The position numbers were made by a program, and so were the translations under genes. Under the pieces are notes generated by a model that made no database searches, was not told the origin of the DNA, and saw only the letters and a program-made list of their open reading frames with translations. Source: Eledone cirrhosa (lineage: Eukaryota). From it: a DNA stretch of 64,000 nt. Positions 2,497-14,435 of this stretch are shown piece by piece (position 1 is the first letter of the stretch; each line of letters begins with the position of its first letter). The stretch spans positions 43,524,001-43,588,000 of the forward strand of contig OZ024751.1 in the NCBI GenBank assembly GCA_964016885.1, in the 5' to 3' direction.

Positions 2497-2687
2497 GGAA
2501 CAAATAAGACCCCGACGGCTGAGCTCAAGCCGATTCGACGGCTAATTCTGTATAGAATTAGCCGTCGAAACGGCTTGAGCTCAGCCGTCGGGGTCTTATT
2601 TGTTCCTATTACCCACTCTACTACCCTAAGTATTGAGTACTTTGGTGCGTTATGGTCCACCTGGTTCCTTACCACATTTCCTTCGTT
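2497..2687 (+). mobile_element. Hairpin-tail element, family E copy 1 (Penelope-like pLTR derivative) in (TA)n
   Basis: Palindrome 2497-2606 plus ~80-nt tail; half hammerhead GAA-ACGGCT tgagctc AGCCGT-C at 2567-2589. Confidence 0.8.
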
Positions 2688-2896
2688 ATATATATATATA
2701 TATATATATATATATATATATATATATATATAGATAGGTAAATTTACACGAATTTATATGATTGTGTATAGAAGATTATATTAATAAGAGGAATTCCAAC
2801 TTTGTCTGATTTACTCGTTTTATTTACAATCCTTTAAAATTTATAATGGTATTATAATGAAATAGTATGGTAGAATATTAAATGTTAAGTGTTAAT

Positions 2897-2935
2897 TGAA
2901 CAAGTACTTTCATGCTTTCGCAATCTTCAGGTTCA
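2897..2935 (-). ncRNA. Mirror copy of the family A hammerhead
   Basis: Exact reverse complement of 3015-3053 in the other arm of the palindrome. Confidence 0.75.
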
Positions 2936-3014
2936 TAATATGTGGTGACAGTCAAGTTTGCAATTTTCAACTGTCGAAGTTGAAAATTGCAAACTTGACT
3001 GTCACTACTGAATA

Positions 3015-3053
3015 TGAACCTGAAGATTGCGAAAGCATGAAAGTACTTGTTCA
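3015..3053 (+). ncRNA. Minimal type I hammerhead ribozyme motif (family A)
   Basis: TGAAC-CTGAAGA-tTGC gaaa GCAt-GAAA-GTAC-TT-GTTCA; palindromic stem III, 5-bp stem I. Confidence 0.75.
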
Positions 3054-3696
3054 ATTAACACTTAGAATTTAATATTCTACCATACTATTTCATTATAATA
3101 CCATTATAAATTTTAAAGGATTGTAAATAAAACGAGTAAATCAGACAAAGTTGGAATTCCTCTTATTAATATATATATGTATATATATATATATATATAT
3201 ATATATATATATCTCCTACCCATCACAGGAAGATATGTGTGTGTATATTGCTTCCTCCCCCTCACTGACCAGCAGCTGGCGATTGCTAAATCTGACCTTT
3301 ATAAAATAACCCACACCCCAAATAACTTCTCATTCACTACCAGAAAGGGACACAGCAGTCAACCTGTTGTTGCTACCTAGATGAAAACTGCTATGAAATC
3401 CCACAATGAATTTTATACTTGAATTTTCAAGTCTCAAATTTTAACTCTTCGTATTATTAATTTTTCTTAATATTAATCAACATTTGAAAAGATGGCTTTT
3501 GCAGACCCATCGAAACCGGTCATTTTTTATACCCTTTATTATTTCCTTACCTTATAAAATTATGTTTTTTCACAAAAAAGTATTCTGTCTCTTATATATT
3601 CCATGTGCCATTACCAACCTCAATTTTCTCTATATATATATATATATATTATATATATATATTAACAAATGGAAACTATATTTATAAAACCATATT

Positions 3697-3762
3697 TATT
3701 TTATTATACATATTTCAAGGGCCACCAAGGCAAATTATGGTGCGCTTTCATCAGATAAAATA
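3697..3762 (-). ncRNA. Type I hammerhead motif related to family B
   Basis: TATTTTAT-CTGATGA-AAGcgCACCA..TGGTGgccCTT-GAAA-TATGTA-TA-ATAAAATA; 8-bp stem I. Confidence 0.7.
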
Positions 3763-3908
3763 CAATACAGATTTGTTTTATAAATAAATATTGACATACC
3801 CTGAAAAAAGACAACCTTAACTCCCTGGATAGGGAGCTTATTGATTCCCAACAAATTAAATATAACCTCTGCATATATATATATATATATATATATATAT
3901 ATATATAT

Positions 3909-4090
3909 AACGAAGGAAATGTGGTAAGGAACCAGGTGGACCATAACGCACCAAAGTACTCAATACTTAGGGTAGTAGAGTGGGTAATAGGAACGAGTAG
4001 GACCCCGACGGCTGAGCTCAAGCCGTTTCGACGTCCAGAATTAGCCGTCGAAACGGCTTGAGCTCAGCCGTCGGGGTCCTACTTGTTCCT
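3909..4090 (-). mobile_element. Hairpin-tail element, family E copy 2
   Basis: Tail is the reverse complement of the copy 1 tail; hairpin about 3988-4092; TA-flanked. Confidence 0.8.
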
Positions 4091-5096
4091 ATATATATAT
4101 ATATATATATATATATATATATATATATATATATATATATATATATATATATATATATATGTATATATATATATATATATATATATATATATATATACAT
4201 ATTAATACATATATATATATACATATATATATACATATATATATATATATACATATATATACATATATATATATATATATACTTATATATATATATGTAT
4301 ATATATATATATATATATATATATATATATATATATATATATATATATATATATATATATACATATATATATATATATGTATATATATATATATATATAT
4401 ATATATATATATATATATGTGTGTATATATATATATATATATATATATATATATATATATATATATATATATATATATATATATATATATGTGTGTGTGT
4501 GTGTGTATATATATGTATATATATATATATATATATATATATATATGTATATATATATATATATATATATATATATATATATATATATATATATATATAT
4601 ATATATATATATATATATATATATATATATATATATATGTATATATATATATATATATATATATATATATATACATATTAATACATATATATATATACAT
4701 ATATATATACATATATATATATATATACATATATATACATATATATATATATATATACATATATATATATATGTATATATATATATATATATATATATAT
4801 ATATATATATATATATATATATATACATATATATATATATATGTATATATATATATATATATATATATATATATATATATATATATATGTGTGTATATAT
4901 ATATATATATATATATATATATATATATATATATATATATATATGTGTGTGTGTGTGTGTGTATATATATGTATATATATATATATATATATATATATAT
5001 ATGTATATATATATATATATATATATATATATATATATATATATATATATATATATATATATATATATATATATATATATATATATATATATATAT
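4091..5096. repeat. ~1-kb (TA)n microsatellite with an internal ~480-bp duplication
   Basis: The interruption pattern ACATATTAATACAT appears at about 4197 and about 4674. Confidence 0.95.
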
Positions 5097-5309
5097 TGAA
5101 AAATGTGTGAGATCCTTGGTACAGTTAGGTATATTTGAAAAAAAGGAAAACAATGACTTCACTTGTATATTTCTCTTAGGAACTGGAATCATATGATTCC
5201 AGTTCCTAAGAGAAATAACAAGACACCCAGGAGCTGGACATATCGATGGATTGACGGAATAAAACACACTTCAACAACATGTGTACCTGTCTTTCCCACA
5301 CCAATTCGG

Positions 5310-11708: not shown

Positions 11709-11757
11709 GATTCTACAGGACTAGAACTGTTTCATTCATTAGAAATCATCAGGAATC
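11709..11757 (-). ncRNA. Mirror copy of the family D hammerhead
   Basis: Exact reverse complement of 11759-11807. Confidence 0.75.
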
Positions 11758-11758
11758 T

Positions 11759-11807
11759 GATTCCTGATGATTTCTAATGAATGAAACAGTTCTAGTCCTG
11801 TAGAATC
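11759..11807 (+). ncRNA. Type I hammerhead motif (family D), GUA cleavage triplet ending at 11802
   Basis: GATTC-CTGATGA-tTTC taat GAAt-GAA-ACAG ttctagtc CTGT-A-GAATC. Confidence 0.75.
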
Positions 11808-12093
11808 TCATCTATATTAAAACTTTTATGCTCTGCTATGTATTGAGTACCTTACTTACTGTGGTTACCTCCGATTCAACCCGGAATAACGTATATATAT
11901 ATATATATATATATATATATATATATATATACTCATGTGTATATATATATATATATATATATATATATATATATATATATACTCATGTGTATATATATAT
12001 ATATATACTCATGTGTGTATATATATATATATATATATATATATATATATATATATATATATATATATATATATATATATATATATATATATA

Positions 12094-12277
12094 AAAGAAT
12101 AGAGGTGTAACACACGAGTTGTGATATATTAGTAAAAGGAAAAGAAAATGCTGACAAATTTTTCCCAGTGAAAAATAGTTTAATTAGGAATAAGTAAAAA
12201 TTTGTAAATTTTTACTTATTCCTAATTAAACTATTTTTCAAAGAAAAATTTGTCAGCATTTTTTTTTCCTTTTACTA
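12094..12277 (-). mobile_element. Hairpin-tail insert with no visible hammerhead
   Basis: Imperfect palindrome 12130-12277 plus ~35-nt tail in (TA)n. Confidence 0.6.
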
Positions 12278-12586
12278 TATATATATATATATATATATAT
12301 ATTCTTTTATATATATATATATATATATATATATATATATATATATATATATATATATATATATACACGAGTATATATATATATATATATATATATATAT
12401 ACACGAGTATATATATATATATATATATATATATATATATATATATATATATATATATATATATATATATATATATATATATATATATATATATATATAT
12501 ATATATATATGTATATATGTATATATATATATATATATATAGTGACGAAACATAAGTCAATTGCATGAACTCATAATTCTTTATTT

Positions 12587-12642
12587 ACTGTTATATATAT
12601 TTCGATGATAGCCAATGAATGGCTATGACCTCATCAGGCAGT
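12587..12642 (-). ncRNA. Type I hammerhead motif (family C)
   Basis: ACTGC-CTGATGA-GGTcATAGCCA ttcat TGGCTATcATC-GAAA-TATATA-TA-ACAGT; covaries with the 5310 copy. Confidence 0.8.
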
Positions 12643-13532
12643 TAGTCAGTTCTTAGATATGCCAGCTCTGTGTTTATAGTGTTGATGGTATCCGAGCCTT
12701 GGGACATATGAGCTTGTTAGGAATAATTTAATGTTGTCAGCAGGAATAGTCTTAATTCTCATTGGTAGGGTTGGTATTTGACCTCAGAGAGACAGGTGGT
12801 GTTGTAAAGTTCAAACCGTCAGGCAAGATGACAATAGTTCCATATGACTGATTTTCACAAAAAGCATTCCTGGTCAGATATATTTTCAATTAAGGTTAAT
12901 AGTATGAAACAGATACTACAGGTCATTCTTAAATTGAGGAATTTATGTGGAGTGGTGCTACTGAAAATTATGGTTAGAGTAGAAAATTTACAAATAAAAA
13001 GACATATGTAGGTTGGCTTGCACGTACACTCACACCCATCTCCACAGACACACACACACATCCACACATACAAATTGAGGAATTAATGTGGGGTGGTAAT
13101 ACTTAAAATAATGGTTAGAGTCCAATACTTAGATAGTTTAGAAAATTTAGAAATAAAAGGCTTATGCTGGTTGATTTGTACAACACTCACACCTACCCCC
13201 TCAGACACACACACATCTACACACACAAATCCATACAGGTGTATATATATATATATGTACGCACAAGTATACATATATATATATATATATAAAATATATA
13301 TATATAAAATATACATATATATAAAATATATATATATAAAATATATATATATAAAATACATACACATATAAAACATATACACATATAAAATATACATACA
13401 TATATATATATATAAAATACACATATATATATATAAAATATATACATATATATACATACATATAAAATACACATATATACAGATATAAAATATATATATA
13501 CATATAATACATATGTATATATATATATAAAA

Positions 13533-14046
13533 TCAGGTTCAATAAAACGTGGTTCTGATGACTCCTAACCAGTAGAGGATCCGGTGGACCATCCACCGTA
13601 GGGACCACAAACTATGGGTGGTTGTTGTTGTCCATTGGTCATTGGTACGGGGTGTAGGGGTCCTGCAGGGGGGGGGCCTTAACCGGTGTTTATCCATATA
13701 GCTTGAGGAAAGTTCCCGTCGTTAGGTGTCTGCAGGCACCGAATAAGTCGGCCCTTCTGTTTAATTGTTTGGTTCCGCCATGAAGAATCTCGAGTGTCTC
13801 ACTAAGACAGAGGTTGCAAATACCAGACCCGCCTCTGTCTGGAGGAACCTTTCTAACCACGGACCAGACCAGAGAGTGCGGGGTTTTTTCAAGTTTGAGC
13901 TTCCAGATCACATCAGAAAGGGCCGCACATTTCCTCTTATCTATTCTGTTAAAGGAATGGCGATGGTTATACCGCCGATCTTTGAAGCTCGTCGCTGTGG
14001 ATCCTATGTAGTGGTGCTCCGAGTTAGGGGTTGTGACTTTGCACCT
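13533..14046 (-). mobile_element. Penelope-like retroelement 3' fragment encoding a GIY-YIG endonuclease C-terminus (open frame 14046..13690)
   Basis: RCKVTT..HYIGSTATSFKDRRYNHRHSF..LSDVIWKLK..W..CNLCLSE..LNRRADLFGACRH matches the CxLC/LNKRxE/CRH ending of Neptune-type PLE endonucleases; TA-flanked and 5'-truncated. Confidence 0.85.
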
Positions 14047-14248
14047 TTATATATATATATATATATATATATATATAAATATATATATATATATATATAT
14101 ATATATATATAAATATATATATATATATATATATATACTCATGTATGTATATATATATAATGCGTGTGTGTGTGTAGATATAGATATATATACACACATA
14201 TATATATATAAGACACACATATATATATATATATATGGGGGGGGGGGG

Positions 14249-14435
14249 ATGTATGACTACGACTGCAGAGCTCAAGCCGTTTCGCCGGCTATTTCTGGAC
14301 TGAAATAGCCGTCGAAAACGGCTTGAGCTCTGCCGTCGGAGTCATACATTTTCCTGTTACCCACTCTACTACCCAAAATATTGAGTTCTCTGATGCGTTA
14401 TGGTCCATCTGGTTCCTTACCACAACTCCTTCGTT
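14249..14435 (+). mobile_element. Hairpin-tail element, family E copy 4
   Basis: Palindrome centred on GGCTATTTC tggact GAAATAGCC plus homologous tail ending CCTTCGTTA(TA)n. Confidence 0.75.

Follow-up and report, generated by a model that had tools for sequence, protein, structure and literature searches.

Four palindromic repeats, each holding part of a hammerhead ribozyme, lie in a 64-kb stretch of the Eledone cirrhosa genome (contig OZ024751.1, positions 43,524,001 to 43,588,000; hereafter the window). Our analysis suggests that these repeats are stubs, about 190 nt in size, left by a Penelope-like element (PLE) of the Hydra type in abortive insertions that joined two cDNAs of one RNA head to head. 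We assign this reading a probability of about 0.62. Throughout, positions in the element are counted from the hammerhead cleavage site GUC^G, with +1 as the first base after the cut and -1 as the last before it. According to the proposed mechanism, the enzyme of the element would cut a (TA)n target on both strands, and each cut end would prime the copying of one RNA, from an internal start at +17 or at +97. Both cDNAs would run off the 5' end of the RNA and would then be joined head to head through a template jump or microhomology, often with trimming into a 14-nt quasi-palindrome at -45..-32, and the reverse transcriptase (RT) that started from +97 would often fail on meeting the first cDNA:RNA hybrid. 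The usual template would be a capped mRNA that starts at A(-41), in the loop of stem II, without the 5' half of the ribozyme; a minor template would be read-through RNA cleaved by the hammerhead.

The four copies are each set in a (TA)n run, and no further copy was found in the window. All have the same order, namely a tail-less inverted arm from +17, a junction, and a tailed arm that runs to +97. Copy 1 (2497-2686, plus strand) is a head-to-head PLE stub flanked by (TA)n at both ends. Its inverted tail-less arm covers 2497-~2551, and its junction falls at ~2545-2558, inside the 14-nt quasi-palindrome, after which the tailed arm continues to 2686. The 3' half of the hammerhead (GAAA, stem III and GUC) lies at 2567-2589 on the plus strand, with the 5' core half absent, and the counterpart of the parental cleavage site is at 2589/2590. 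The equivalent of the parental A(-41), the putative capped start, is position 2549 (plus strand), which is a T here and comes from the inverted arm. The one-sided tail of 80 nt (+18..+97; 2607-2686, plus strand) is bounded by the fixed ends +17 and +97, and in the parent TA directly follows both of these ends. By analogy with PMC11167929, the tail may correspond to the gap between two RT start sites. In copy 2 (3910-4089, minus strand) the tail-less arm extends to -40, the tailed arm starts from -26/-27, and a GAC|GTC joint lies between them. Copies 3 and 4 belong to an older subfamily. Copy 3 (6596-6785, plus strand) has a tail-less arm to -48, a tailed arm from -4 and filler that includes (TA)n, while copy 4 (14249-14434, plus strand) has its joint within the quasi-palindrome and a G12 run (14237-14248) in place of the outer end of the tail-less arm.

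The first-pass annotation of this DNA had described four palindromic copies that keep GAAA, stem III and the GUC triplet, with an unpaired tail of about 80 nt and with part of one arm lost in copy 3. The positions and the tail were borne out, and at least one arm of each copy holds GAAA, stem III (CGGC/GCCG with a GAGCTC loop) and GUC; the symmetry was found in copies 1 and 4 only, which are near-symmetric about -39, whereas copies 2 and 3 are asymmetric. None of the four window copies (0/4) has a complete hammerhead core on one strand, the 5' core half being missing in all of them. An Rfam search of the window gave no hammerhead among the 150 matches listed of 164, and those listed were weak microRNA-like and AT-repeat matches below the gathering score.

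We searched the genome, which is 3.0 Gb in size and rich in microsatellites, with a 30-mer from the tail of the young copies. It gave 19,949 exact matches and its reversed control gave 0, so the family is not due to chance. Pattern counts such as this were made genome-wide, and work at the level of single loci covered about 320 loci. Of the 30 loci that matched copy 1 best, four run on upstream without inversion, and by extending uninverted loci we found a whole element (G000:C6:48978519-48984274) in the order inverted pseudo-long terminal repeat (pLTR), pLTR, open reading frame (ORF, broken in this copy), pLTR. RT and GIY-YIG motifs (FDxxSxY, MG, YRDD, VIY..YIG) were present in unjoined open frames of loci L057, L062 and L046; Pfam returned no family for these frames, and RT and endonuclease are called here by motif. 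The motifs of the Hydra clade were also found, with DKT for DKG, a CxCx5C linker as CNCPDRSSC, CNLC (CxxC) and CKH (CxH), a single C between GIY and YIG, and no CCHH; RWR stands in place of the RWK of the Hydra clade, and the repeat unit is 3.58 kb. Partial-tandem pLTRs, an inverted 5'-truncated copy and a one-sided tail, the layout of endonuclease-positive PLEs, were seen at L061/L062. In almost every one of 92 copies the tail is followed by TA runs, the Hydra-type (TA)n target, and two copies continue into the element's own 5' region. As judged by these motifs and this layout, the parent of the stubs is a Hydra-type PLE with an RT and a GIY-YIG endonuclease.

The parental hammerhead is complete and of type I. 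Among 41 distinct parents, 40 have a U3-A8 core in which N7 varies and one has C3-A8 (TTGATAA in 33, TTGAGAA in 4, TTGAAAA in 3 and CTGAGAA in 1). Its unconstrained minimum free energy fold is a three-way junction of stems I-III with a stem II loop of about 30 nt. The prediction that the stubs lack a CUGANGA half and that an uninverted parent with such a core exists was therefore half right. The 5' core half is absent from the stubs, and a parent with a complete ribozyme after the RT ORF was found, but the parental core is UUGANAA (YTGANAA in 41/41 distinct complete parents) and not CTGANGA. The 5' strand of the parental stem II differs from the mirrored arm of the stubs; hence the apparent "stem II" of the stubs, which had been taken as kept, is only the mirror of its 3' strand. 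The symmetry axis corresponds to the 3' edge of the parent's long stem II loop. Self-cleavage of the parental hammerhead is putative, and copies that end at the scissile bond point to it indirectly.

We then asked how the arms of single copies relate to each other. The unbiased young set was drawn from the 100 tail matches at the head of the listing; it holds 92 of them at 90 loci, all within the initial 28 Mb of contig C1. The old set holds 76 copies. Both arms were present in 71 young copies, among which there were 63 distinct junctions, and arm lengths ranged from ~17 to >800 nt. The 3' ends of the arms fell at two places with a shared target TA, 71 of them at +20 and 161 at +103/+104 (279 matches). 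The segment +5..+15 was identical between the two arms in 53 of 64 copies, whereas shuffling gave 21 on average and 31 at most. The 11 mismatched copies comprise nine with a single-base difference, L275 with two bases, and L220, a subfamily chimera. For long arm pairs, 7 of 11 were nearest neighbours (ties included) and 5 of 11 had private variants in common. These results support the view that the palindrome is re-created at each insertion, as the first-pass annotation had proposed, and they agree with its expectation that arms cluster by copy. Its statement that both arms share the variant after GUC applies to most copies, with copy 2 of the window as an exception, where the arms differ by one base in this segment (CCTACTTG vs CCTACTCG). 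A non-LTR retrozyme, with tandem units that each hold a complete type I hammerhead (10.64898/2026.07.22.740005), was rejected as the source, the copies here being dispersed, inverted and half-core.

The main axis was located by arm ends. Genome-wide, 10,374 copies have both arms past the 3' strand of stem II and no more than 30 nt apart, a count that uses a different pattern from that of the 19,949 tail matches. In a set of 261 arms that hold -37..-25, some of them from loci retrieved through biased queries, 189 have their end between -37 and -46 and 21 at -47..-49, where the 11 at -49 probably reflect differences between subfamilies; the other 51 extend further, mostly at loci retrieved with a long-pLTR query. 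Inner ends pile up at -35..-46 and at the cleavage site, and the earlier placement of the axis at the stem II loop was correct for the main class; further, smaller classes have their axis at the cut site, in stem III, or hundreds of nt upstream. In contigs from three runs (at most two samples of one study, one of which may be the window's own), depth climbs steeply around -50..-38 and drops steeply after +97, with loose ends in TA at +20 and +100. Since depth in contigs does not measure copy number, it serves here only against an assembly artefact.

Arms that stop at A(-41) often carry an untemplated G. Genome-wide, G-AGTMC was found 3,783 times and A-AGTMC 766 times, and local arms at A(-41) had G in 24 cases and A in 6, with 15 of the 24 G beyond what the partner arm can explain. 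A TATA-like box starts 29-31 nt upstream of A(-41) in 41/41 parents, where it doubles as the 5' strand of stem II, and an Inr (initiator)-like hexamer, TCAGTA or TTAGTC, lies at A(-41) in 35/41. The motif at A(-41) and its distance from the box presumably match Inr and TATA spacing. In LINE-1, an extra G marks the copied mRNA cap (PMC11702581), and pLTR promoters with TATA/Inr-like motifs have been reported (PMC3846280 and PMC2377424). We infer that the main axis coincides with a putative capped transcription start, A(-41), inside the stem II loop. An mRNA starting there, within the ribozyme, would lack its 5' half, so that the stubs would lack it too. Two other sources of the extra G were rejected. 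A parental G at -42 was seen in 0/41 distinct complete parents, and a spliced 5' exon, considered since -41/-40 resembles a splice acceptor, disagrees with the bases upstream of the G, which vary by copy, and with the lack of any GAGGT in the 960 nt upstream within the pLTR.

A second class of copies ends at the hammerhead cut. We found 707 copies with no more than 24 nt between the two +1 positions, and counted by hand the 100 that were listed. Both arms ended exactly at the cut site in 38, of which 26 had 1-7 nt of filler (one base in 11 copies) and 12 had none; 46 were centred on stem III, 7 lay within 3 nt of the site, and 9 were others. A script run on 30 loci gave 12 cut-site copies, 15 stem III copies and 3 others. 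In a control that allowed ends inside the G run, 60 copies were at the site among 100 listed of 457 (hand count). From either hand count, 38 per 100 of 707 or 60 per 100 of 457, we estimate that some 270 genomic copies have both arms ending exactly at the cut. An artefact of this G run was rejected, as arms ending within the run were a minority among the 100 listed by hand count: about 3 tailed and 9 tail-less arms had at most two G/C left. The fillers at the cut site open with A or T in 10/11 and not with the C of a cap, which fits an uncapped RNA end. Taken together, the cut-site copies would constitute new, indirect evidence for hammerhead cleavage in vivo.

The next question was whether the two arms come from one cDNA or from two. 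Close pairs of G-ended arms occurred in 6 per 100 listed matches, i.e. in about 230 copies. Mixed joints, in which a cut-site arm meets a -41 arm, numbered at most 16 in a strand-symmetric search, and 4 of these 16 are decayed arms ending at -5..-8; by a rough estimate, about 500 would be expected under independent pairing. This deficit of about 30-fold means that in nearly every copy the two arms reach the end of the same RNA species. The same agreement would arise if a single cDNA primed at +97 reached the RNA 5' end, added a few bases, folded back and copied itself to +17, with repair from the tail-less side later deleting part of the tailed arm. We consider this possible, though unlikely. 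It accounts for arms that end at the same RNA end and have variants in common, and PMC3846280 reads palindromes at PLE inverted junctions as self-priming. Joints with 0-1 nt between the arms are common, however (12 with none and 11 with one base among the 38 cut-site copies), a blunt cap-to-cap joint was among the matches listed, and such spacing is too short for a hairpin loop, which argues against snap-back. Further, the tail-less arm was the longer one in 14/16 mixed copies (p=0.004). Nine of these mixed copies have a tailed arm that begins at the cut site, with 0-7 filler bases or a G run, and a tail-less arm that reaches at least 41 nt further. Folding back from the tailed arm cannot add sequence that is absent there, so a longer tail-less arm favours two cDNAs. 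An automatic count of asymmetries of at least 15 nt had the tail-less arm longer in 15 young and 14 old copies, and the tailed arm longer in 5 and 1, respectively. The count is noisy, as 4 of the 5 young "tailed arm longer" calls (L176, L177, L220, L269) proved to be misparsed on inspection. Lone arms ending at +17 also occur, some with the G, and speak against a single cDNA that turns around.

The first-pass annotation had explained the palindromes by an RT that stalls in hammerhead stem II and snaps back, with the ribozyme helix as primer. In favour of this, the main axis falls in the region of the stem II loop, and the 14-nt quasi-palindrome there is used at many joints. However, the mirrored arm is not the 5' strand of the parental stem II, an extra G is found at arm ends next to an Inr-like A that lies downstream of a TATA-like box, there are axes well away from stem II, and the asymmetry has the wrong direction; together with the joints of 0-1 nt, this makes the explanation improbable. 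We regard as more doubtful still that two independent RNAs were copied and the arms then made alike by gene conversion, with concordance aided by subfamilies active at different times. The chimera L220, the copies with discordant C/T alleles described below and the up to 16 mixed-end copies would agree with it, but conversion cannot bring both inner ends into agreement, and by our rough estimate mixed cut-site/cap joints are too rare for independent pairing. Finally, a non-autonomous palindrome transposed whole, like a miniature inverted-repeat transposable element (MITE) with fixed terminal inverted repeats and uniform length, has both outer ends fixed in TA in its favour and is refuted by the diversity of junctions and arm lengths, by the retrotransposon nature of the parent and by an inverted repeat that is not terminal on the tailed side, so that the earlier view of the stubs as no ordinary MITE is upheld.

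Several observations weigh against two cDNAs from one capped or cleaved RNA. Start site, cap and cleavage are all deduced from DNA alone. Nine of the 24 local G cases are ambiguous, since the partner arm could have supplied the base, and the majority of joints fall at -35..-40 and not at -41. Some arms pass -41 to -46 without the G, and the quasi-palindrome at -45..-32 could drive joining whatever the RNA end. At the cut site, stalling of the RT 1-2 nt from the cut, at the base of stem III, keeps some weight as an alternative cause, and the copies centred on stem III (~46/100 of those with a short spacer) show that RNA or cDNA hairpins play a part in a minority of cases. Fold-back would account just as well for ends and private variants common to both arms. 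In the raw automatic count the asymmetry of the young set is weaker, at 15 vs 5 for the threshold of 15 nt and 16 vs 11 for one of 8 nt, with misparsed copies on the side of the 11, and directional repair could bias deletions. Lastly, 9/25 copies picked for the rare T allele of copy 1 carry C in the other arm. This discordance seems to exceed what simple decay would give, so that two RNAs seem to be used sometimes, and it is only partly explained; the query having been selected for that allele, we did not take it as support. L220 is likewise a clear subfamily chimera.

Some copies have unusual joints. The tail is present on both arms at L119 (G000:C1:424501317-424501379), L103, L178 and L216. 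At L119 a short palindromic filler separates two arms that each end no more than 2 nt from the cut site; one of them continues into the 5' region of the element. Junctions at L072, L073, L027, L261 and L154 contain short re-copied arm pieces and repeated GAC/GTC template switches, which suggests a stuttering RT.

Other palindromes and elements were observed nearby. A palindrome of a second PLE-like family lies at window 11687-11829, with a complete CUGAUGA core in both arms. Among 21 local arms of this family, the short ones share an end point to within a few nt, about 30 nt below a TATAAATA box in the longer copies (L108, L123, L261, L282), which fits an axis at the start site. A further palindrome at window 2777-3173 has 190-nt arms with mirrored CTGAAGA..GAAA hammerhead-like cores and adjoins a (TA)n run. 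More palindromes lie at window 5168-5217, 12169-12240, 15388-15567 and 26927-26978, two of which adjoin TA runs, and the one at 15388-15567 has weak Rfam microRNA matches below the gathering score. Other hammerhead-like CTGANGA...GAAA motifs start at window 5315, 12637 (minus), 10903, 16133 (minus), 16192, 53361 and 3754 (minus), those at 16133 and 16192 forming an opposite-strand pair. Unrelated retroelement frames near copies (L063 3888-9475, plus; L064 5863-8187, plus; L039 2-1225, minus) comprise a LINE-like element with two ORFs as well as further PLE-like RT frames, and window 800-2090 holds a long degenerate (CAC/CAA)n tract with internal repeats.

It is about an even bet that the stubs, ten thousand or more in number, amount to a fossil library of the 5'-RACE (rapid amplification of cDNA ends) kind. 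They would then record a promoter within the hammerhead, with the start site in the stem II loop, so that the mRNA would be unable to self-cleave in cis and the read-through RNA able to do so; cleavage of RNA by the ribozyme in the germ line, followed by reverse transcription of the cut RNA; and overlapping cDNAs on one RNA as the origin of inverted pLTRs with a one-sided tail, which may be a general rule for PLEs. If our reading is right, counting in a genome alone would map the start site of a PLE, show cleavage in vivo and separate self-priming from twin priming, and the same counting test is applicable to any PLE family in any assembled genome. In annotation, such stubs should be labelled neither MITEs nor microRNA hairpins. 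A literature search, with most subscription papers and supplements outside its scope, gave no report that assigns the inversion points of PLEs to a capped start or a hammerhead cut.

In LINE-1 twin priming, two target ends are primed on one RNA and the cDNAs cover adjacent parts of it. In contrast, the two cDNAs proposed here would overlap, hence the palindrome; the extra G at run-off is common to both systems (PMC11702581). An inverted 5'-truncated pLTR with a one-sided tail has already been published (PMC8557442). Endonuclease-positive PLE insertions, including Adineta Pen2a (PMC3846280) and Drosophila virilis Penelope (PMC2377424), likewise have a head-to-head arrangement, a one-ended tail, a microsatellite target and a pLTR promoter with TATA/Inr-like motifs. 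Unlike in those insertions, the tail here is 80 nt and not 30-40, most copies are cut to about 190 nt, and the inner ends map to a putative capped start and to the hammerhead cut. As in the Hydra clade (PMC8557442), there is a C-terminal GIY-YIG, DKT, CxCx5C, CxxC, CxH, no CCHH, a hammerhead in the pLTR and (TA)n, whereas RWR replaces RWK, the unit of 3.58 kb compares with "generally <3 kb", and the core is U3-A8, the assignment being made by motifs.

An anole PLE, Poseidon PAc of Anolis, is predicted to be a dimer; in vitro it cuts and extends both strands and reverse transcribes from two internal sites that bound the tail (PMC11167929). Two RT starts near the pLTR-ORF junction, deduced here from DNA, and an AT-rich target are features that our element would have in common with it. 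PAc differs in that no RNA-seq reads were reported to end at its hammerhead site and cleavage was dispensable in vitro, whereas some 270 copies end at the site here. The PLE hammerheads of Schistosoma Cercyon (PMC4209133) resemble ours in U3-A8 covariation and in opposite-strand motif pairs; our family differs in a 4-bp stem III with a palindromic loop, in a long stem II loop with a putative promoter, and in stubs that hold the 3' half only. The origin of tandem, inverted and tailed PLE structures and the role of the hammerhead in vivo are stated as open in PMC8557442, PMC4209133 and PMC11167929. Collectively, the stubs belong to the known insertion layout of PLEs, and their junction statistics make two open PLE questions testable.

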